Assembly (NCBI GenBank): GCA_044226625.1
Contig: JBGAGQ010000108.1
Coordinates: 1 to 14,211, forward strand
Length of the DNA stretch: 14,211 nt
Direction: 5' to 3'
DNA from: Thermoanaerobaculia bacterium
GTDB taxonomy: Bacteria; Acidobacteriota; Thermoanaerobaculia; Multivoradales; UBA5704
Position numbers and translations under genes: made by a program. The notes under the pieces were generated by a model. The model searched no databases. It saw nothing but the letters and a program-made list of their open reading frames with translations, and had not been told where the DNA came from. Positions 1,393 to 14,211 of the stretch are shown one piece after another (positions within the stretch are counted from its first letter, which is position 1; every line of letters begins with the position of its first letter).

Positions 1393-3525
1393 ATGCCGGA
1401 GCCGACGCCCGATCGCGCCAAAGTCCTGTGGCAAAAGATCCTGGAACGGATCCAAACCTGGGACTTCGCGCTCGCGCGCCGCTTCGGTCTGGCGAGCCGC
1501 GAGGAGCGGATCTTCTATTTCCTGGTCGCCGCAACCGGCCTGACGGTCGGCTCGTTGGGCCTGGCGGTCGGTTGGCTCACCGATCTGCTCGAGCGCGCGC
1601 TCTGGGGCGACGCGCCGAATCTCCTGGCGGCGGCGCAGACGGCTCCTCCCTGGGTTCGGGTGGGCGCCCCGGTCGTCGGCGGCCTGCTGGTCGGACTGGT
1701 CCTCTGGCTCGGGCGCATGCGCGTCTCCGGGCACGGCACTTCCGGGCTGATCGAGGCGGTCGCGCTCCACGGTGGCCGGGTCGAGCCGAAGCCGGTATTC
1801 CTCGCCGCGGTCGCGGGCGTGGCGACCGTCGGGAGCGGCGGATCGCTCGGCCGTGAGGGACCGATGGTCTCGCTCGGCTCGATGCTCTCGAGCTGGCTCG
1901 GCGCGCGCTTCGGCCTCTCGCCGCAGCGGGTGAAGATCCTCCTCGGCTGCGGCGCGGCGGCCGGGGTCGCCTCGCTCTACAACACCCCGATCGGCGGCGC
2001 GCTGTTCGCGATGGAGGTGATCCTCGGCAATTTCGCGTTCGAGATCTTCGGTCCGATCGTCGTCTCCTCGGTGCTCTCGACGATCGTCGTCCGGACGGTC
2101 AACGGGACCGCTCCGATCTACGCCGTCCCGGATTACGCGCTGGTCTCCGCGCGCGAGCTGTTCGCCTACGTCGGCTTGGGGATCGTCGGCGGCCTCGCCT
2201 CGGCCTTATTCATCCAGGTCGCACGCGGCTCGGGGTGGCTGTTCCGGGCGTTGCACTTCGTGCCGCGACCGTTGCGTCCGGCCATCGGCATGTTGGGGGT
2301 CGGGGCGCTCGGGCTCTACGTTCCTTACGTCTACGGCAACGGTTTCGAGACGATCACCCTCGCGCTGCACGGCAAGCTGCCGATTCTCCTCCTGATCGCC
2401 CTTCCGGCCGCGAAGCTCGTCGCGACGGCGCTCACCAGCGGGAGCGGCTGCGCGGGGGGGATGTTCACCCCATCGCTCCTGGTCGGCGCGCTGGTGGGAG
2501 GCGCCTACGGCACGGGCATCCATGACCTCTGGCCGACCGTGACGGCCCCCGCGGGCGCCTATGCGGCCGTCGGCATGGCGGCGATCGCCGCGGGCACCAG
2601 CCACGCGCCGATCAGCGCGATCCTGATCGCGTTCGAGTTCACCGGGAACTACGGGCTGATCCTGCCGATGATGCTTGCCGCGATCACCTCGACGGTGCTC
2701 GCGCGGAAGCTCTACACCCCCTCGATCTACACCGAGTCGCTTGCTCGTCGCGGGGTGGACGTCTCGATGCGCATGGAGGAGGCGGCGCTCGCGGCGCTCA
2801 AGGCCGAGGACCTCGCTCGCCCCGATCCGGACACGCTCGCGCCGGGCGACGACTATCCGACCGTGGTCGAGAAGTTCCTGGCGGCCAGCCGCCAACGCCT
2901 GTTCGTGGTGAGCGCCGATAAGCGCCTGCTCGGAGCGATCTCGCTCCACGACATCAAGCACGTGCTGGAGGACCCCGAGACCCTGCCGATGGTCGTTGCC
3001 CACGACCTGATGCTGCCGGTCGAGAACGTGGTCCGGAAGAGCGAGCGCCTCCATCGCGCGACGGAGGTGTTCGCGGCGAGCTCCTTCGAACGCCTGCCGG
3101 TGATCGACGAGGGGAACCGCCTGGTCGGCGTGCTCGCCAAACGCGACCTGCTCGCCGTCTACGCTCAAGAGGTGTTGGGCCGCCCGGCCATGCTCGCCAA
3201 GTTCGTCTCCAGCCGGGACGACCAGACCAGCCGCGATTACGTCGAGCTTCCGCCGAACTTCGCGCTCGAGATGATGCCGGTCCCTCCCGAGCTGGTCGGC
3301 AAGACGCTCGCCGAAGCGAAGCTTCCCCAGATCTGGGGCGCCCGGGTGATCGAGCTCCGCAGGCGGAAGGCCTTCGGCGAAGAAGAGCACATGATCCCCG
3401 GCGGGGACACGACCCTCGAAGCGGGAGACCTCGTCGTCCTCATCGGACCCGCCGAGCGCCTCGAAAGGCTGGTCCGCGGCGAGCCCGCTATTCCCACCGA
3501 AGTCACCGCGGTCGCCGCGCCATGA
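1393..3525 (+). CDS. ClC-family chloride channel/transporter with a C-terminal CBS pair and TrkA_C (RCK_C) domain
   Basis: ClC signatures GSGGSLGREGP, YNTPIGGALFAMEVI, GSGCAGGMFTPSL, HAPISAILIAFEFT and SIYT. These are followed by CBS repeats ('LFVVSADKRLLGAISLHDI', 'LPVIDEGNRLVGVLAKRDLL') and a TrkA_C-like tail ('LVGKTLAEAKL...IPGGDTTLEAGDLVVLIG'). Confidence 0.93.
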   Translation: MPEPTPDRAKVLWQKILERIQTWDFALARRFGLASREERIFYFLVAATGLTVGSLGLAVGWLTDLLERALWGDAPNLLAAAQTAPPWVRVGAPVVGGLLVGLVLWLGRMRVSGHGTSGLIEAVALHGGRVEPKPVFLAAVAGVATVGSGGSLGREGPMVSLGSMLSSWLGARFGLSPQRVKILLGCGAAAGVASLYNTPIGGALFAMEVILGNFAFEIFGPIVVSSVLSTIVVRTVNGTAPIYAVPDYALVSARELFAYVGLGIVGGLASALFIQVARGSGWLFRALHFVPRPLRPAIGMLGVGALGLYVPYVYGNGFETITLALHGKLPILLLIALPAAKLVATALTSGSGCAGGMFTPSLLVGALVGGAYGTGIHDLWPTVTAPAGAYAAVGMAAIAAGTSHAPISAILIAFEFTGNYGLILPMMLAAITSTVLARKLYTPSIYTESLARRGVDVSMRMEEAALAALKAEDLARPDPDTLAPGDDYPTVVEKFLAASRQRLFVVSADKRLLGAISLHDIKHVLEDPETLPMVVAHDLMLPVENVVRKSERLHRATEVFAASSFERLPVIDEGNRLVGVLAKRDLLAVYAQEVLGRPAMLAKFVSSRDDQTSRDYVELPPNFALEMMPVPPELVGKTLAEAKLPQIWGARVIELRRRKAFGEEEHMIPGGDTTLEAGDLVVLIGPAERLERLVRGEPAIPTEVTAVAAP

Positions 3526-3985: not shown

Positions 3986-4026
3986 TGCTCGTCGGGAAAT
4001 TAGCTTCGCTGACCCCGAATCGACAG

Positions 4027-4122
4027 GATGCTGCGACTGAATCGACTGGATTCCGCGGCGAATCGGCTGGGCTCTGCGACCGAACCACTAGGTACTGCGG
4101 CGAAACGACTGGTTTCTGCGAC
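4027..4122. repeat. ~4.5 x 21-bp degenerate tandem repeat
   Basis: gatgctgcgactgaatcgact / ggattccgcggcgaatcggct / gggctctgcgaccgaaccact / aggtactgcggcgaaacgact / ggtttctgcgac. Confidence 0.65.
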
Positions 4123-4218
4123 GTGTCTTGCCAAGACGCTGACGATGGCAGGCACCCGAGATCGCGACGTTCCAAAGCCGGAGCCAAGTTCGCAGCCCTG
4201 GCGCCAGGTCGGCCCAAA

Positions 4219-4425
4219 AGCGCCGAAGGCGCGACCCATAATAGCCTGGGGCGCAGCCCCAGGAACCGAATCGAGCCAAGGCATCCCAAGGGCTGAAAGC
4301 CCGTTCCATCCTTCCTCCCCGACTCCAATCGAACGATGGAACGGGCCTTTGGCCCTTGAAAGCTGGTGTGCCCTGACAGTCCTGGGGCGCTGCCCCAGGC
4401 TGTTATGGGTCGCGCCTTCGGCGCT
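4219..4425. repeat. REP/REPIN-like compound inverted repeat
   Basis: Outer arms 4219-4264 and 4380-4425 match at 42/46 in reverse complement; inner arms 4288-4310 and 4335-4357 match at 20/23. Each arm is built from short palindromes: gcgcc-gaa-ggcgc, cctggggc-gca-gccccagg, gggct-gaa-agccc. Confidence 0.85.
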
Positions 4426-4534
4426 CTTCACCCCTCGGCCGCCGGTTGCCGCTTCATCAGCTTTCGAATCCGCTCCTCGGTCGTTCCGGCCCTCCGATAC
4501 GGGGAGGGGGGTGGGATAGACTCCGCCGCCGACC

Positions 4535-7624
<3,090 letters not shown>

Positions 7625-7633
7625 GGGGGCGCC

Positions 7634-8458
7634 ATGCCCGAGCTTCCCGAGATCGAGGTCCTGCGCCGGAGCTTGGAGCCGCACGTGCTCGGGGATCGGA
7701 TCGAGCGGGTGGAGGTTCGGGACGGGCGCCTGCGCGAGCCGGTCGACGCGCGCCAGCTGAAAAAGCGGGTGGCCGGTCATGGGATCGAGCGGTTGGATCG
7801 GCGAGGTAAGTACCTGCTGCTCGACCTCGACGACGGCTGGACGCTCGCGATCCACCTCGGCATGAGCGGCCGGTTCACCCTGGTTCCGGACGACGAGCCG
7901 CCCGAGGCGCACGAGCACATGGTGTTCCATCTGGCCTCGGGCAGGAAGCTGCGCTTGCGCGATCCGCGGCGGTTCGGGCTCGTCTTCGCGTACGAGACTG
8001 CGAAGCGGGAGGCCGATCCCCACTTCGCACATCTCGGCGTCGAGCCGCTCGCCTCTGGATTCTCGGGCGCGACGCTACGCGCGGCGGCTTGCGGGCGCCG
8101 AGGGCCCGTGAAGGCCTTTCTGATGGACGGGACCGTGGTGGTCGGCGCGGGCAACATCTACGCCGCCGAGTCGCTCTTTCGCGCGCGGATCCACCCGCTG
8201 CGCTCGGTCGCGCGGATCTCCGCGGAGCGGTGGGACCGCCTCGCCGACTCCCTGGTCGAGGTGCTTTGCCAGGCGGTCGAGCAGGGCGGGACGACGCTCA
8301 ACGACTTCGCCGACGGCGAGGGGCGGAGCGGGTACTTCCAGGTCTCGCTTTCGGTCTACGACCGCGAGGGCGAAGCGTGCGAACGTTGCGGCCGAACGAT
8401 CCGGAGAGTGGTCCTCGGCAACCGGAGCACGTACTTCTGCCCGGGCTGCCAGCGATAG
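7634..8458 (+). CDS. mutM: Formamidopyrimidine-DNA glycosylase / AP lyase (intact copy, 274 aa)
   Basis: N-terminal [28 protein letters not shown], an H2TH region '[18 protein letters not shown]', and a C-terminal zinc finger CERC...[11 protein letters not shown]. Confidence 0.95.
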
Positions 8459-8469
8459 ACTCTCCATCT

Positions 8470-8649
8470 ATGCTCTCCACCATCGCCTCAACTCAGCCCC
8501 GCGTCCTCGGCGTCGCGGGAGGGACCGGTTCGGGAAAGACCACCGTCGTGCGCTCGATTCTGGAAGCGGTCGGCCGCGACCGGATCGCTTTGATCGAGCA
8601 GGACAACTACTACCGGGACGTCGATTGGACGACCGACGCCTCGCTGCTC
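8470..8649 (+). pseudogene. udk: 5' fragment (60 codons) of uridine kinase, fused in-frame to the carB tail
   Basis: MLSTIASTQPRVLGVAGGTGSGKTTVV...DNYYRDVDWTTDASLL matches the start of the full gene at 9649, then diverges at 8650. Confidence 0.85.
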
Positions 8650-8760
8650 GACATCCCCTGCATCACCACGCTCTCCGGCGCGATGGCCTGCGCCGAAGGG
8701 ATCGCCGCGCTCGGTCTCGACGCGCTGGAAGTCCGGTCGCTCCAGAGCATCAACCGGTAG
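8647..8760 (+). other. carB: Displaced C-terminal ~37 codons of CarB
   Basis: (L)DIPCITTLSGAMACAEGIAALGLDALEVRSLQSINR* has the typical CarB ending (IP..TT...A...V.SLQ). Joining it to 4535-7624 gives a ~1067-aa protein of normal CarB size. Confidence 0.9.
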
Positions 8761-8769
8761 GGGGGCGCC

Positions 8770-9592
8770 ATGCCCGAGCTTCCCGAGATCGAGGTCCTGC
8801 GCCGGAGCTTGGAGCCGCACGTGCTCGGGGATCGGATCGAGCGGGTGGAGGTTCGGGACGGGCGCCTGCGCGAGCCGGTCGACGCGCGCCAGCTGAAAAA
8901 GCGGGTGGCCGGTCATGGGATCGAGCGGTTGGATCGGCGAGGTAAGTACCTGCTGCTCGACCTCGACGACGGCTGGACGCTCGCGATCCACCTCGGCATG
9001 AGCGGCCGGTTCACCCTGGTTCCAGACGACGAGCCGCCCGAGGCGCACGAGCACATGGTGTTCCATCTGGCCTCGGGCAGGAAGCTGCGCTTGCGCGATC
9101 CGCGGCGGTTCGGGCTCGTCTTCGCGTACGAGACTGCGAAGCGGGAGGCCGATCCCCACTTCGCACATCTCGGCGTCGAGCCGCTCGCCTCTGGATTCTC
9201 GGGCGCGACGCTACGCGCGGCGGCTTGCGGGCGCCGAGGGCCCGTGAAGGCCTTTCTGATGGACGGGACCGTGGTGGTCGGCGCGGGCAACATCTACGCC
9301 GCCGAGTCGCTCTTTCGCGCGCGGATCCACCCGCTGCGCTCGGTCGCGCGGATCTCCGCGGAGCGGTGGGACCGCCTCGCCGACTCCTGGTCGAGGTGCT
9401 TTGCCAGGCGGTCGAGCAGGGTGGACGACGCTCAACGACTTCGCCGACGGCGAGGGGCGGAGCAGGTACTTCCAGGTCTCGCTTTCGGTCTACGACCGCG
9501 AGGGCGAAGCGTGCGAACGTTGCGGCCGAACGATCCGGAGAGTGGTCCTCGGCAACCGGAGCACGTACTTCTGCCCGGGCTGCCAGCGATAG
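8770..9592 (+). pseudogene. mutM: Second mutM copy in the native position, frameshifted by two 1-nt deletions (likely sequence errors)
   Basis: The protein is identical to 7634-8458 until 'WDRLADS'. Deletions at ~9387 and ~9422 shift the frame, and the zinc-finger end lies in another frame (9401-9592 ORF). Confidence 0.85.
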
Positions 9593-9662
9593 ACTCTCCA
9601 TCTATGCTCTCCACCTGCCCGGGCTGCCGGCGATAGAGCTCTCCATCTATGCTGCTCTCCAC
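9571..9662 (+). repeat. Imperfect 44/48-bp tandem duplication spanning the mutM stop and udk start
   Basis: ctgcccgggctgccagcgatagactctccatctatgctctccac (9571-9614) is followed by ctgcccgggctgccggcgatagagctctccatctatgctgctctccac (9615-9662). The second unit is absent from copy 1. Confidence 0.92.
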
Positions 9663-10293
9663 CATCGCCTCAACTCAGCCCCGCGTCCTCGGCGTCGCGG
9701 GAGGGACCGGTTCGGGAAAGACCACCGTCGTGCGCTCGATTCTGGAAGCGGTCGGCCGCGACCGGATCGCTTTGATCGAGCAGGACAACTACTACCGGGA
9801 CGTCGATTGGACGACCGACGCCTCGCTGCTCCACCACAACTTCGACCATCCGTCGGCGATCGACAACGAGCTGCTGGTCCAGCACGTCCGCTCACTGCGG
9901 GAGGGGCGCGCGGTCGAGGTGCCCATCTATGACTTCGTGCGCCACCGCCGGACCGACCGGACTCGTATCGTCGAGCCGCGGCCGGTCGTGCTGCTCGAAG
10001 GGATCCTCATCTTCGTCGAGCCGTCGCTTCGGGCGATCCAGGATTTCAAGGTCTACGTCGACACCGACGCGGACATCCGCCTGATCCGCCGCTTGACCCG
10101 CGATCTCGACGAGCGCGGACGGACGGTCGAGGACGTCCTGCGCCAGTACCAGGAGACTGTCCGTCCGATGCACCTCGAGTTCGTCGAGCCGTCGAAGCGG
10201 TGGGCGGACATCATCATCCCCGAAGGGGGCGAGAACCGCGTCGCGCTGGAGATGGTGGTCGCCCGGGTCGAGCAGCTGCTCGGCCAGCCGTAA
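9649..10293 (+). CDS. udk: Uridine kinase
   Basis: Walker A GVAGGTGSGKTT, QDNYY, NFDHPSAID, PIYDF, LEGIL, DADIRLIRRLTRD..ERGR, VRPMHLEFVEPSKRWADIIIPEGGEN. Confidence 0.96.
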   Translation: MLLSTIASTQPRVLGVAGGTGSGKTTVVRSILEAVGRDRIALIEQDNYYRDVDWTTDASLLHHNFDHPSAIDNELLVQHVRSLREGRAVEVPIYDFVRHRRTDRTRIVEPRPVVLLEGILIFVEPSLRAIQDFKVYVDTDADIRLIRRLTRDLDERGRTVEDVLRQYQETVRPMHLEFVEPSKRWADIIIPEGGENRVALEMVVARVEQLLGQP

Positions 10294-10307: not shown

Positions 10308-13300
10308 ATGCCGACCGATTTCGACACGCTCTCCGCGGAGAGCTTCCTCGCCGTCTGCAAGGAGGGGAGCGCCGCGGCCTACCGTCGTTTCGAGCAGGTC
10401 CTCGCCGCTCTGGACGATCTCGGAACTCGGGCCGCGGCGCGCCGATTTCTCGCCCGGATCGCCGCGGCGCTCGCCCGCGCGACGGATGCGGGGGAGGATC
10501 CGGCGGCGTTCCATTTTCAGATCGGCACCTTGGCGCTCGGCCGGGAGGCGGACGCCCGCCGGGAGGGGGCGGACGGCGCCCAGCTGCTGTTGCTCCAGTT
10601 CCCGAGCGTCTTCGCGCCGGAGGAGTGGTCGCGGACCTTCTTCGAGGGGCTCGCCCGCTATTCGCCGCACGACTTCGCGGGGCGGACGCTCGCCGAGCTC
10701 GGCTGCGGCAACGGCTGGGTGACGCTCGCACTCGCCCGCCGCTCGGCGCCCGAGAAGCTCTACGGGCTCGACATCAATCCGCGGGCGATCACCTGCGCCC
10801 GGCTCAACCTCTACCTGAACGCCCTCGCCGCGGACGGAGAGCCGGTGCTCGACGCCGATGGCAAAAGCCTGCTCGATCGCGTGGAGTTCCACGAATCCGA
10901 CCTGCTCGGCTGGGTGCGCGAGCGAGGTCTGAAGCTCGATCGGGTGATCGGTTGCATCCCGCAGGTACTCGACCCGAACCTGGGGGAGATCCGAGCGGGA
11001 GCGGAGCTCTCCGACGAGCTGCTCGTCTCGCTGAGCAACTACACCGGCCACCAGGGCTATCTCGAGGATCTCTTCGGCCTTGGGCTGGTCGCCCGCGCGC
11101 TCGAGGAGGCGATCGAGGTGATGCGACCCGGCGGTTGGGTGGTCCTCAATCTGGGAGGACGCCCTGGGCGCGAGATCCTGCGTCAGATGTTCTGTCGGCG
11201 CGGGTTCTCGATCCGGCCGATCTGGTCGACCCGGATCGGCCAGGCGGACGACACCGACATCTCTCCGCTCGCCGAGATCGAGCGGAGCGGACGGCATCGG
11301 TTCGAGTTCTACCTCGGAGTCCACAGCGACGAGCCGGTCTCGGCGCGGACCGCCCAGGCCTACGCCCGTGCCGGCGGGGCGATCTATCACTCGCTCACCG
11401 TGTTCGATGGGAAGCTCCGGTTCCCCGAAGCGATGAATCTCGTCTTCGCCGCGCTCCATGGCGAGGTGTGGCGGCCGGTGCGCGACGCGCTCGACCTCGA
11501 CTACGAGGACGACGCTCGGGTGGAGGAGAAATCCGCGTTCCTCGCTCGGCTCGCGCGGTTGCTGCCGGAGCGGCGTGCCTTCCCCTACGGCGAAACGCTC
11601 GGCGCGCAACCGTTTCGGCACCGCTTCGCGGAATATCTGGAGCGCTATTTCGCGATTCCGTTGGCGGCCGAGAACCTAGTGGTGCTGCCGGAGCGGGCCT
11701 CGGCCTTGCGCAACCTGTTCGCGCTCTACGCTCCGGCGCTTTCGCTGGTCCACCCTTCGCTCCAGGTGGGGGCGGCCGGCGTTTCCCCGGAGGCCCTGGG
11801 GTTCCAGGGGGCTCCCGCCGAGCTGCTCGAGTGTCCTCTACGGGTCGATCTCGCGGTCAAGCTGATCGCGGCGCTCCGCCCGCAGCTCGTCGCCACCACC
11901 CTCGATCCGTCCGACGTTCGGTCGCCCGACTCGTTCCTTCGCCTGGTCGAGGCGGCCGGGCGGGTCGGAGCCCGCCTGCTGGTCGACATCTCGCCGTTCT
12001 TCGAGCTGGACAGCACGCCCGGCAGCAACGGAGTCCTCCAGGCGCTTTCGGAAGGACCGCTTCCCGCGCACGTCGCGATCCTGTGCGGCCTGGTCCGGAA
12101 TCGCGTCTATGAGGATCTGGAGGTCTGTTTCCTGCTCACGGAGGATCGCGAGCTGGTCGCCGCGCTCGAGGGGGCCGCCGAGCTGACCTACAGCCGGGTC
12201 CCGATGCTCACCCAGGAGTACTACGACACGATCCTCGCCGAGCTGCTGAGCTTCCGCCTCGATCCGTTGGGATCGGCGGTGCCGGGGCGGCGAACGCGCG
12301 CGGCGAGCCTTCCGCCCATCGCGGGGGCTGCCCCCGCCTTGCCGATCGCCGAGCGATGCCGGATCGCGTTCGCGCATCCGGCGCTCGTCGCCGAGAACCT
12401 GCCGCGGACGGCCGCGACGATCCGTTTCGACTACGGGGAAAACGCGCTCGCTTCGCCCACCCCGGTGGCGACCAGCCTGTTCGAGGCATTCGCCCGTCGC
12501 GAGCTATCGACCGCCGAGACCGATCCGTCGCCGGAGCTTTCCCAATTCCTGCGCCGCCGCTTCGGGCTCGACGTGGGAGGCGGCCGGCTCGCGCCGCGTT
12601 TTGTCTACGGGCTCGGGGTCGCGCCTCTTTTTTCGAGCCTCGCCGCCGCCTGCGCGGCCGAAGGGGGGACGTTCGTCTTCCCACGGGGCTCCTACGGCTT
12701 CTTCGTCGCGACGGTGGACTTCTTCGGCGGATCCAGGCGCTGGATCGCGACCGAGCGGGCGAACGGCTTCAAGGTGACACCGACCGAGCTGGAAGCCGCG
12801 CTCGCCGGCGTCTCCAGGCCCTGGTTGTATTTGAACGGCCCGGCGGTCAACCCCACCGGCAGCCTGTACTCGAGCGACGAGATGGCCGCCCTCCTCGCCG
12901 TCGCGGCCAAGCACCGGGCCCGGGTGGTGATCGACATCTTGTTCTCCGGCCTGGAGCACGCCGAGCCTGTGCCGTGGGACCTCGGTCCCGTGCTCGCCGA
13001 TCATGCGCTGAGCCTGGTGGTCCTGGGAGGCGTTTCCAAGGAGCTCGCGGCCGGCGGGCTCCGCTTCGGCTTCGCCTGGTGCCATGGGGAGGCGATCGAG
13101 CGGGCGCTGCTGCGCGGGCTCACCTCGGTCCCCCACGCGACGACGCGTTTCGCCGCAAAGCGGATCTTCGCCGCCCTGAACCGCCCGAGCGTGCGGACGC
13201 GGGAGGAGCTCTCCGCGCAACGTCAGCTCCTGGCCGAGCGTGCGAACCGCCTGGTGGCGGTCCTCGCCGATTGTGGTTGGGAGCCGCTCCGCCCTTCGGG

Positions 13301-13574
13301 TGGTCTGTTTCTGGTCGCCCGCCCCGGTGCCTATCTGGGGCGGAAGCTCGAGGTCGCGACCTCGATGGGTCTTCGGGAGTGGACCTTGGACAGCGAGAAC
13401 ATCGCGGAGGCGATGTTCTGGGGGGTCGACCTGATGATCAACGACAGCCGGTGGACCGGGATCCCGGAGCACTGTCGATTCGTCCTTTCGGTCGTGGAGG
13501 ATGTTTTCGAGGAGGGGTTGCGCCGCATCCGGGCTTTTTGCGAACGGGTGACCGGGGGTTCGAACGCGCCCTGA
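10308..13574 (+). CDS. mmt: Full-length plant-type methionine S-methyltransferase (1088 aa): N-terminal SAM methyltransferase plus PLP-aminotransferase-like C-terminal region
   Basis: The likely start is ATG 10308, 14 nt after the udk stop. Motifs recognised from plant MMT and bacterial MmtN: PSVFAPEEWSRTFFEGL, ELGCGNGW, YGLDINPRA, NLYLNAL, LLDRVEFHESDLL, GCIPQVL, LSNY..QGYLEDLFGLGLVARALEE, NLGGRPG, QADDTDISPLAEIER...RFEF, SARTAQAY. The C-terminal class I/II aminotransferase motifs are GPAVNPTG, VIDILFS and GVSKELAAGGLRFG. Confidence 0.9.
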   Translation: MPTDFDTLSAESFLAVCKEGSAAAYRRFEQVLAALDDLGTRAAARRFLARIAAALARATDAGEDPAAFHFQIGTLALGREADARREGADGAQLLLLQFPSVFAPEEWSRTFFEGLARYSPHDFAGRTLAELGCGNGWVTLALARRSAPEKLYGLDINPRAITCARLNLYLNALAADGEPVLDADGKSLLDRVEFHESDLLGWVRERGLKLDRVIGCIPQVLDPNLGEIRAGAELSDELLVSLSNYTGHQGYLEDLFGLGLVARALEEAIEVMRPGGWVVLNLGGRPGREILRQMFCRRGFSIRPIWSTRIGQADDTDISPLAEIERSGRHRFEFYLGVHSDEPVSARTAQAYARAGGAIYHSLTVFDGKLRFPEAMNLVFAALHGEVWRPVRDALDLDYEDDARVEEKSAFLARLARLLPERRAFPYGETLGAQPFRHRFAEYLERYFAIPLAAENLVVLPERASALRNLFALYAPALSLVHPSLQVGAAGVSPEALGFQGAPAELLECPLRVDLAVKLIAALRPQLVATTLDPSDVRSPDSFLRLVEAAGRVGARLLVDISPFFELDSTPGSNGVLQALSEGPLPAHVAILCGLVRNRVYEDLEVCFLLTEDRELVAALEGAAELTYSRVPMLTQEYYDTILAELLSFRLDPLGSAVPGRRTRAASLPPIAGAAPALPIAERCRIAFAHPALVAENLPRTAATIRFDYGENALASPTPVATSLFEAFARRELSTAETDPSPELSQFLRRRFGLDVGGGRLAPRFVYGLGVAPLFSSLAAACAAEGGTFVFPRGSYGFFVATVDFFGGSRRWIATERANGFKVTPTELEAALAGVSRPWLYLNGPAVNPTGSLYSSDEMAALLAVAAKHRARVVIDILFSGLEHAEPVPWDLGPVLADHALSLVVLGGVSKELAAGGLRFGFAWCHGEAIERALLRGLTSVPHATTRFAAKRIFAALNRPSVRTREELSAQRQLLAERANRLVAVLADCGWEPLRPSGGLFLVARPGAYLGRKLEVATSMGLREWTLDSENIAEAMFWGVDLMINDSRWTGIPEHCRFVLSVVEDVFEEGLRRIRAFCERVTGGSNAP

Positions 13575-13864: not shown

Positions 13865-13939
13865 GCCCACGTGGCTCAGAGGTAGAGCACTTCCTTGGTA
13901 AGGAAGGGGTCACCGGTTCGAATCCGGTCGTGGGCTCCA
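13865..13939 (+). tRNA. thrT: tRNA-Thr (GGT)
   Basis: Cloverleaf with acceptor GCCCACG/CGTGGGC, D arm GCTC/GAGC, anticodon arm CTTCC-TTGGTAA-GGAAG (GGT at 13897-13899), T arm ACCGG-TTCGAAT-CCGGT, and an encoded CCA. Confidence 0.98.
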
Positions 13940-14073: not shown

Positions 14074-14211
14074 ATGGCAAAGGAAAAGTTCGATCGGGAG
14101 AAGCCGCACGTCAACGTGGGAACGATCGGCCACGTCGACCACGGCAAGACGACCTTGACGGCGGCGTTGACGAAGGTTGCGTACGATCGGGGTTGGACGA
14201 AGTTGGCGATT
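14074..14211 (+). CDS. tuf: Elongation factor Tu (5' part, runs off the window)
   Basis: [35 protein letters not shown] with the G1 motif GHVDHGKT. An AGGAG Shine-Dalgarno lies upstream, and the gene follows tRNA-Thr as in tufB-type loci. It is not in the ORF track because it has no stop in the window. Confidence 0.97.

Follow-up and report, generated by a model that had tools for sequence, protein, structure and literature searches.

A plant-type methionine S-methyltransferase in Acidobacteriota, with a probable pyridoxal-phosphate module in its C-terminal part

Contig JBGAGQ010000108.1, from a metagenome-assembled genome (MAG) of a Thermoanaerobaculia bacterium, was analysed over its whole length of 14,211 nucleotides (nt) and is called the window here. 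Its forward strand carries a gene for a plant-type methionine S-methyltransferase (MMT), the enzyme that in plants produces S-methylmethionine (SMM) (main text of PMC9135737). In the reading that we favour, and consider reasonably probable, the product is a three-domain MMT of Group III in which an SMM-forming methyltransferase is joined to an aminotransferase-like pseudo-dimer with a probable second activity dependent on pyridoxal 5′-phosphate (PLP). This kind of MMT is already known, and the gene is an added member in another phylum, Acidobacteriota (Thermoanaerobaculia); its presence in an acidobacterial MAG, taken alone, does no more than add to the hosts already known. Of greater interest is a result for the family as a whole: bacteria appear to have kept intact a pseudo-dimeric PLP module that is lost from land plants.

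Family membership and domain architecture

The open reading frame (ORF) of the MMT gene is intact and runs from an ATG at 10308 through 1088 codons to a stop codon at 13572-13574. Conservation within the family was read from an alignment of 192 full-length rows, made up of 172 homologues of 950-1200 amino acids (aa) and 20 named plants. Removal of the 26 rows that are at least 50% identical to Marchantia (the plant-like rows) leaves a non-plant set of 166 rows, with identities of 28-80%. The parts of the gene, all on the forward strand, are as follows, where SAM is S-adenosylmethionine.

10308..13574, +, plant-type (Group III) methionine S-methyltransferase gene, from the ORF and its translation (1088 aa plus stop)
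10308..11417, +, N-terminal helical extension (residues ~1-100) and MmtN-like class-I SAM methyltransferase domain (~100-370), from Pfam, structure 7vvv_A and the Marchantia alignment
10701..10715, +, GxGxG SAM-binding motif (G132, G134, G136), invariant or nearly so in the 166 non-plant and 26 plant-like rows
11421..12407, +, middle domain (372-700), predicted degenerate form of an aminotransferase large domain that lacks its own PLP site, from hhalign, a profile search of the PDB and a structural model
11586..11588, +, codon of Tyr427 in the middle-domain motif 'FPY...G....R', aligned with aminotransferase 'Y..G..ELR'
12330..13571, +, C-terminal domain (675-1088), a complete class-I aminotransferase fold with an intact PLP residue set, from PF00155, Foldseek and VIA
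13038..13040, +, codon of Lys911, the predicted PLP Schiff-base lysine in 'GGVSKELAAGGLRF', aligned with the SK lysine of aspartate aminotransferase 6f35

The window protein is 40% identical to Marchantia MMT over 98% coverage (E 9.2e-252), and an alignment of 15 sequences stays collinear over the N-terminal helical extension and on to the C-terminus. The likeness to plant MMT that had been proposed from the sequence alone thus extends over the full length and is not confined to the generic SAM motif. Length and domain order are likewise common to the two, and their SAM-binding residues are identical. Plant and bacterial MMT are classed jointly as Group III (main text of PMC9135737). Members of this group are about 1,050-1,100 aa long and align with plant MMT from end to end, as does the window protein with its 1088 aa.

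Plant-like Group III MMT is known from Deltaproteobacteria and Oligoflexia (Peng et al. 2022, citing Williams 2019; main text of PMC9135737). The bacterial members from Pseudobacteriovorax antillogorgiicola, Silvanigrella and Fluviispira are 39-43% identical to the window protein and share its architecture and catalytic residue sets. According to the same main text, the Group III gene is not linked to genes for dimethylsulphoniopropionate (DMSP) synthesis, non-ribosomal peptide synthetases (NRPS) or methionine cycling, and the gene in the window has no such linkage either. The host of the window gene belongs to another phylum than the published Group III hosts, and in both trees described below the window clade is distinct from the group of Oligoflexia and Proteobacteria.

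Homologues are plentiful in metagenomes. An Acidobacteriota MAG protein is among the nearest matches, at 79% identity, and many matches carry the name methionine S-methyltransferase from JGI. The window protein matches 535 clusters at 90% identity, and a full scan of 1.84 billion representatives (50% identity) returned 159 proteins at E<=1e-30; a single-protein scan of named genomes gave 2 loci. The sequence-only reading had stated that full-length forms were noted in only a few bacterial groups, in agreement with the main text of PMC9135737, and had overrated the novelty of the gene, given that Group III is in print and the metagenomic matches are so many. Our searches of the full-text literature, which included passages of PMC10585787 and PMC11464771, found nothing on the PLP site or on MMT in Acidobacteria. 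Neither main-text sections of PMC9135737 nor full-text searches, supplements aside, gave the three-domain reading or the contrast with plants at the PLP site, and nothing was found in print that explains what the large C-terminal portion of MMT does.

In the N-terminal part, Pfam recognizes SAM-methyltransferase motifs at residues 109-280 and gives no match in the first 100 residues. The plant-like character of this N-terminal extension, which had been noticed from the sequence alone, is borne out by the pattern FL..C....AY....L..L....TR..AR.FL, common to the window protein and Marchantia MMT. The structure of Roseovarius indicus MmtN (7vvv_A) matches residues 104-370 (E 1.3e-8), and in this alignment Asp69 and Cys121 of MmtN correspond to D155 and C216. 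The GxGxG motif, a signature of MmtN and MMT (main text of PMC9135737), is kept together with D155, S197 and C216 in 162-166 of the 166 non-plant rows and in all 26 plant-like rows; D155 and C216 are also kept in 120 of 120 plant-clade rows. HMMER aligns Ser101 and Leu102 of MmtN with S187 and L188, the other candidate being the invariant S197-D198-L199 after strand 3, and a conserved Ser and Leu are found either way. The methyltransferase domain of the window protein is 50-57% identical to pieces of plant MMT and 34% identical to the closest complete short form found (P0451).

MmtN of Groups I and II, as represented by 7vvv, thus has a homologous methyltransferase domain with the same motif and residues, and presumably carries out the same SAM-dependent S-methylation. 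MmtN is a single domain of ~300 aa that forms a trimer, and in Group I its gene is clustered with DMSP-synthesis genes (main text of PMC9135737), which agrees with the earlier description of MmtN as the methyltransferase part only. Unlike MmtN, the window protein has three domains, in which the methyltransferase bears an inserted segment at ~172-190 and is fused to two aminotransferase-like domains. Its gene has udk, fpg, carB, tRNA-Thr and tuf as neighbours and no MmtN-style cluster of DMSP-synthesis, NRPS or homocysteine methyltransferase genes.

The remainder of the protein had been described as one long aminotransferase-like C-terminus following a SAM methyltransferase. Both parts are present, but the C-terminus comprises two domains, one degenerate and one complete. 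We therefore describe the protein, on profile and model evidence, as three domains: a methyltransferase like MmtN, then the degenerate large domain of an aminotransferase, and finally a complete class-I aminotransferase. The full-length AlphaFold2 (AF2) model has a mean predicted local distance difference test score (pLDDT) of 91.5 and a predicted template modelling score (pTM) of 0.90. Pfam places Aminotran_1_2 (PF00155) at residues 766-1009 (E 1.9e-26). A Foldseek search with residues 675-1085 gave, among the top rows listed, class-I fold PLP enzymes, mostly aminotransferases, with 6f77_A the best (E 1.6e-19), and a VIA comparison aligned 366 residues of 1xi9_A with model residues 677..1081 (Z 39.0, root-mean-square deviation [rmsd] 2.7). 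The class-I (subgroup Ib) aspartate and prephenate aminotransferases (6f77, 6f35 and 1xi9) share the whole fold and the Asn, Asp, Ser-Lys and Arg set with this domain; in contrast, sequence identity is only 17-22%, and their dimer partner is replaced in the window protein by the fused degenerate large domain.

The middle domain has no Pfam match, and direct BLASTP comparison with the C-terminal domain is not significant (E 0.53), so that the duplication becomes visible only by profile and fold comparison. An hhalign comparison of the profiles for residues 385-695 and 696-1085 gave a probability of 97% (E 8e-11, 200 columns). All 18 matches at E<10 between the middle-domain profile and the PDB are fold-type-I PLP enzymes (best E 0.0013). 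An AF2 model of the middle domain from a 37-sequence alignment has a pLDDT of 82.9, and each of its 50 VIA rows is again a fold-type-I PLP enzyme, the best being 4r8d_A (Z 16.8, rmsd 3.5, 224 aligned). The match is confined to the aminotransferase large domain (chain residues 44..283 only of 4r8d_A). GabR and PdxR, which are aminotransferase-fold regulators, are among the fold matches.

The PLP site in bacteria and plants

The Lys, Asn, Asp and Arg residues expected of a PLP site are present in the C-terminal domain. S910-K911 would supply the Schiff-base Lys, N848 and D876 the Asn and Asp, R919 the phosphate-binding Arg and R1057 the carboxylate-binding Arg. These positions are nearly invariant among the 166 non-plant rows, with K911 kept in 160, R919 in 163, N848 in 164, D876 in 164 and R1057 in 162, and the positions of a DYGEN motif are kept in 154-162.

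Plant MMT differs sharply at this site. None of the 23 land-plant rows has the PLP lysine, and among all 120 plant-clade rows the K911 column holds Leu (66), Phe (28), Ser (8), Pro (5), Thr (5), Met (3), Gln (2) or a gap (1), and in no case Lys. R919 and the DYGEN motif are mostly lost from the plant clade as well. The architecture was earlier held to be the same as in plants; the domain order is indeed the same, but the bacterial C-terminal domain keeps a PLP catalytic set that the plant domain lacks. Near-invariance in the non-plant rows against decay in plants argues for a function kept in bacteria and lost in plants.

Three sequences (P0044, P0045 and P0065) branch at the base of the plant clade, are 50-53% identical to Marchantia MMT and retain the Ser-Lys pair; two of them also carry R919. 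From their place in the tree they may be streptophyte algae, and a Closterium MMT fragment indicates that at least one charophyte has the gene. If the three are algal, the PLP site would have been lost early in land-plant history.

The middle domain carries a motif that may bear on the neighbouring PLP site. In aspartate aminotransferase, the Tyr of a 'Y..G..LR' motif serves the PLP phosphate of the partner subunit. The profile comparison with the PDB aligns the middle-domain pattern 'FPY..T.G...FR' on the aminotransferase 'Y..G..ELR', and Y427 is kept by 14 of the 23 land-plant rows, compared with 163 of the 169 other rows. The middle-domain position equivalent to the PLP lysine, 597, is variable (K84, R36, N19, H12), and at T735, the C-domain equivalent of Y427, Tyr is not among the commonest residues listed. 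Two domains that pair in the manner of an aminotransferase around one active site would be expected to show this residue pattern.

Structure prediction points in the same direction. When the C-terminal and middle domains were modelled as two chains, the complex scores were 0.92, 0.92 and 0.91 against 0.00 for the best control, although the prediction, made with custom alignments, resembles solved aminotransferase homodimers and the pass may reflect that likeness only. The mark applied to these scores is reached by 58 of 80 solved complexes and by 2 of 110 mismatched pairs. Contacts agree between runs by at least 79%, and the pLDDT of the partner is at least 81. The predicted interface joins residues 422-428 of the middle domain to S910, 914-919 and E711 of the C-terminal domain. 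The middle domain is thus predicted to pack on the PLP site in the manner of the second subunit of an aminotransferase dimer.

To place the plant proteins relative to the bacterial ones, trees were computed with FastTree for the 192 rows and with IQ-TREE in quick mode (LG+G4) for 63 rows hand-picked to span the clades, the latter tree being rooted on a divergent clade. In both trees the streptophytes form one clade with support of 100, nested among bacterial and metagenomic sequences. The window protein falls in the main clade with plant MMT, from which the divergent clade is split off at support 100. FastTree makes the plants sister to the clade of the window protein (support 85), and IQ-TREE makes them sister to a group from Oligoflexia, Proteobacteria and Bacteroidota (support 89). 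The window lineage was rejected as donor of the plant gene, as the trees disagree and neither branch is starred. A single transfer from a bacterium to a streptophyte would be the simplest reading of these sequences. The suggestion that the gene bears on the bacterial origin of plant MMT is upheld insofar as plants nest within bacterial sequences, but the window lineage itself is not shown to be the donor.

The divergent clade consists of full-length MMT-like proteins that are 28-35% identical to the window protein. At loci L081, L084-L090, L097, L099-L101, L103 and L104 on metagenome contigs, a conserved same-strand gene cluster accompanies them, with an unknown 367-aa protein, a Ser/Thr protein kinase, a tetratricopeptide-repeat (TPR)-caspase (Peptidase_C14), the MMT-like protein and a short-chain dehydrogenase. 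The caspase-TPR gene lies directly upstream in 11 of 27 divergent-clade loci, and transporters of the OPT and MFS types are found nearby. The short-chain dehydrogenase lies directly downstream in 13 of the 24 divergent-clade loci with room for it, compared with none of 51 main-clade loci.

Proposed activities and alternatives

Because the N-terminal domain is homologous to plant MMT and to MmtN, whose activities have been shown in the literature, it most likely makes SMM, and by this analogy SMM synthesis by the window protein is likely. The domain would transfer a methyl group from SAM to the sulphur of methionine. The middle and C-terminal domains would represent an internal duplication of a class-I aminotransferase, of which the middle copy would be a stripped large domain that has kept the Tyr-Gly-Arg motif and no PLP site of its own, and the C-terminal copy a complete one with the PLP lysine and its partner residues. 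Packed like the subunits of a dimer, the two copies would form one PLP site per chain. Conservation of the site suggests that bacteria probably have a second, PLP-dependent activity, which would act on SMM, methionine or a close relative; transamination, decarboxylation and gamma-elimination are candidate reactions. In land plants the site would have decayed.

These proposals can be carried one step further, to a scheme that we offer tentatively and rate as somewhat short of an even chance. Bacterial Group III MMTs may be two-step enzymes for which SMM is an intermediate, subsequently transaminated, decarboxylated or cleaved by gamma-elimination (with release of dimethyl sulphide) at the PLP site of the pseudo-dimer. 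A single acquisition from bacteria would have brought the fused gene to streptophytes, and land plants would have lost the PLP site and kept the methyltransferase for the SMM cycle. Plant MMT could accordingly be framed as a bacterial fusion enzyme that has lost half of its chemistry. The contrast at the PLP lysine (160 of 166 non-plant rows, 0 of 120 plant rows), together with a degenerate partner domain that keeps the matching motif, opens both the C-terminal two-thirds of MMT and the use of SMM by these bacteria to direct testing.

SMM is the entry to one route of DMSP synthesis and the hub of the plant SMM cycle. Plants couple MMT with homocysteine S-methyltransferase in that cycle, and what SMM does in bacteria that carry plant-like MMT is called 'difficult to predict' (main text of PMC9135737). 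The sequence-only reading had proposed a search for mmuM in the host. In this 97.9%-complete genome a stand-alone homocysteine S-methyltransferase (PF02574; MmuM/HMT) is absent, the single PF02574 match being MetH (1185 aa; TIGR02082, 1107 bits), and in the other carriers G001, G003 and G021 the sole PF02574 domain likewise lies in MetH. A plant-style MMT/HMT cycle for SMM is therefore not evident. A link to methionine salvage, with the aminotransferase making Met from its oxo-acid, was considered and set aside; no acireductone dioxygenase was found in the same genome, which is a weak negative. The enzymes that would lead from SMM to DMSP, namely a decarboxylase, an amine oxidase or aminotransferase and an aldehyde dehydrogenase, come from generic families, whose presence in a genome is not diagnostic of the pathway.

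Several observations weigh against a methionine-methylating enzyme with a catalytic PLP module, in addition to the reservation about the complex prediction given above. The methionine-binding residues Glu127, Arg132 and Glu250 of MmtN align with D222, E227 and H330, which is no clean mapping; R229 lies two residues past E227, an invariant E333 lies near H330, and the loop at 223-231 has a pLDDT below 50. No NCBIfam equivalog scores above its cut-off with the window MMT protein. Only one of four Group III MMT strains, P. antillogorgiicola, made DMSP (main text of PMC9135737). The 51 main-clade loci show no consistent linkage of MMT to a gene that could serve a following step. Phe (Phe879) stands three residues past the PLP Asp in 163 of 166 non-plant rows, at what we take to be the position of the Tyr that stacks on, or hydrogen-bonds to, PLP in aspartate aminotransferase. 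Tyr in a D-x-x-Y motif is typical of class-I aminotransferases, and Phe is unusual for a transaminase. GabR and PdxR are aminotransferase-fold regulators that keep PLP for sensing, and a conserved PLP lysine alone is no proof of catalysis.

The last of these points lead to the alternative that survives best, although we regard it as unlikely: the bacterial proteins would be plant-like throughout, with catalysis confined to the methyltransferase and with aminotransferase-like domains that oligomerize or regulate, binding PLP or an amino acid as effector. Plant MMT makes SMM (main text of PMC9135737) with the PLP lysine in none of 120 rows, so the methyltransferase can work independently of PLP chemistry. 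The Phe in place of the catalytic-site Tyr, the effector domains GabR and PdxR among the fold matches, and the failure to find a linked downstream enzyme all suit such a role. Against it stand K911, N848, D876, R919, R1057 and the DYGEN motif, near-invariant in the non-plant rows and decayed in plants, a pattern that sensing fits less simply than catalysis.

More doubtful is a role in another sulphonium pathway, in which the aminotransferase would act first (for example interconverting Met and 4-methylthio-2-oxobutyrate) and the methyltransferase would then act on the product or on another thioether or selenoether instead of free methionine. The transamination route by which algae make DMSP employs an aminotransferase, a reductase and an S-methyltransferase, and the short-chain dehydrogenase that directly follows the homologue in 13 of 24 divergent-clade loci recalls that route. 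The unclear conservation of the MmtN methionine-binding residues would also be accommodated. However, the window protein belongs to the main clade with plant MMT, where the dehydrogenase follows in 0 of 51 loci, and its methyltransferase domain has 50-57% identity to plant MMT pieces. Moreover, a genome without acireductone dioxygenase would have no canonical salvage source of the oxo-acid. We consider this alternative improbable.

Genomic setting of the gene

The features that flank the MMT gene are listed here, again on the forward strand.

9649..10293, +, udk (uridine kinase), from NF004018 (276 bits) and TIGR00235 (259 bits), both above cut-off
13865..13939, +, tRNA-Thr(GGT), from ARAGORN and Rfam tRNA (71.5 bits); downstream limit of the variable slot
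14074..14211, +, start of tuf, identified by position; a 46-aa open frame truncated where the contig ends

The TAA stop codon of udk is at 10291-10293, and the ATG of the MMT gene lies 14 nt downstream. In locus L014, the ORF that matches the 46-aa frame of the window carries GTP_EFTU and domains D2 and D3 (the EF-Tu Pfam set). The guanine plus cytosine (GC) fraction is 0.69-0.70 over the MMT ORF, similar to the remaining window, and because this composition matches the host, any transfer of the gene was not recent. The ORF, tRNA and GC data bear out what had been read from the sequence about the 1088-aa ORF, its position between udk and tRNA-Thr/tuf, and its host-like composition.

The same cannot be said of the 'housekeeping operon' in which the gene had been placed. 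Full-length orthologues were found in 3 of 40 relatives, namely in two of seven other genomes of the genus (79-80% identity) and in one at family level (62%), and an even sample of 300 other genomes of the phylum gave one full-length match. The order carB, fpg, udk, MMT, tRNA-Thr, tuf is common to the window and the two carriers of the same genus, and tRNA-Thr(GGT) also lies 3′ of the gene in L014, L015, L003 and L004. Genome G005 has no MMT in the slot, and about 316 nt separate udk from tRNA-Thr. In genome G002 (L022, G002:C26:40900-48430) the udk-tRNA-Thr slot holds two ORFs without Pfam match, an IS200-like Y1 transposase and an 874-aa PPDK_N/PEP-utilising enzyme, and this different cargo marks the slot as an insertion hot spot. 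The family-level orthologue, in G021, lies between a Band-7 gene and a pentapeptide-repeat gene. The slot varies within the genus and the family-level orthologue is elsewhere; the MMT gene is accessory cargo in a variable slot beside a tRNA gene and not part of a conserved operon. Neighbours were clustered for the window together with 80 loci from metagenomes and two from genomes (83 loci with 646 ORFs in all), and no main-clade neighbour recurs beyond 5-7 loci.

The source MAG has 133 contigs and 6.6 Mb, with 5.5% contamination and the completeness given above, and the window is one whole 14.2-kb contig of it. Contigs of sequencing run X1 cover the MMT ORF without differences, and one of them bridges the udk-MMT junction; X1 is possibly the source run of the window, and its coverage is then not independent support. 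A second study holds pieces that are 95-99% identical.

A near-identical tandem repeat of ~1136 bp occupies 7623-9894, across the 3′ end of carB, fpg and the 5′ end of udk. As assembled, the repeat fuses carB in frame to a first copy of fpg (ORF 4535-8458, 1307 aa), after which come a partial udk, the missing 3′ end of carB (8649-8758) and a second, frameshifted fpg. Position 7624 runs straight on to 8649 in contigs of two studies, and 8470 to 9653 in X1, which gives the single-copy order carB-fpg-udk as in L014. The repeat, which is outside the MMT ORF, is most likely an assembly artefact and not a carB-fpg fusion gene.

That the MMT gene is foreign to the bacterium, through plant DNA contamination, mis-binning or chimeric assembly, is scarcely credible: the contig is short, its MAG is fragmented and has some contamination, and the artefact lies 400 nt upstream of MMT, but the gene has the GC content of its contig and no introns, two other genomes of the genus have the same gene order with 79-80% protein identity, an X1 contig bridges udk and MMT, a second study holds the near-identical pieces, and the contig bears two Acido-Lenti-1 RNA motifs.

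A promoter and terminator scan gave no promoter-like site, and the 5 terminator-like sites that it reported, all within the MMT ORF, were taken as chance (expected 2.2 +/- 1.6).

The two Acido-Lenti-1 small RNA motifs (RF01687; 49.8 and 43.5 bits, gathering score 37) are at 4219-4263 (- strand) and 4381-4425 (+ strand), on opposite strands in the gap between a ClC channel gene and carB. ORFs in this gap, at 4028-4519 (+) and 4000-4563 (-), are unannotated and have no Pfam match. The channel gene itself, at 1393-3525 (+), encodes a 710-aa ClC chloride channel with a CBS pair and a C-terminal TrkA-C domain and adjoins a LolCE-like permease gene at the contig start; it is ordinary and unrelated to MMT.

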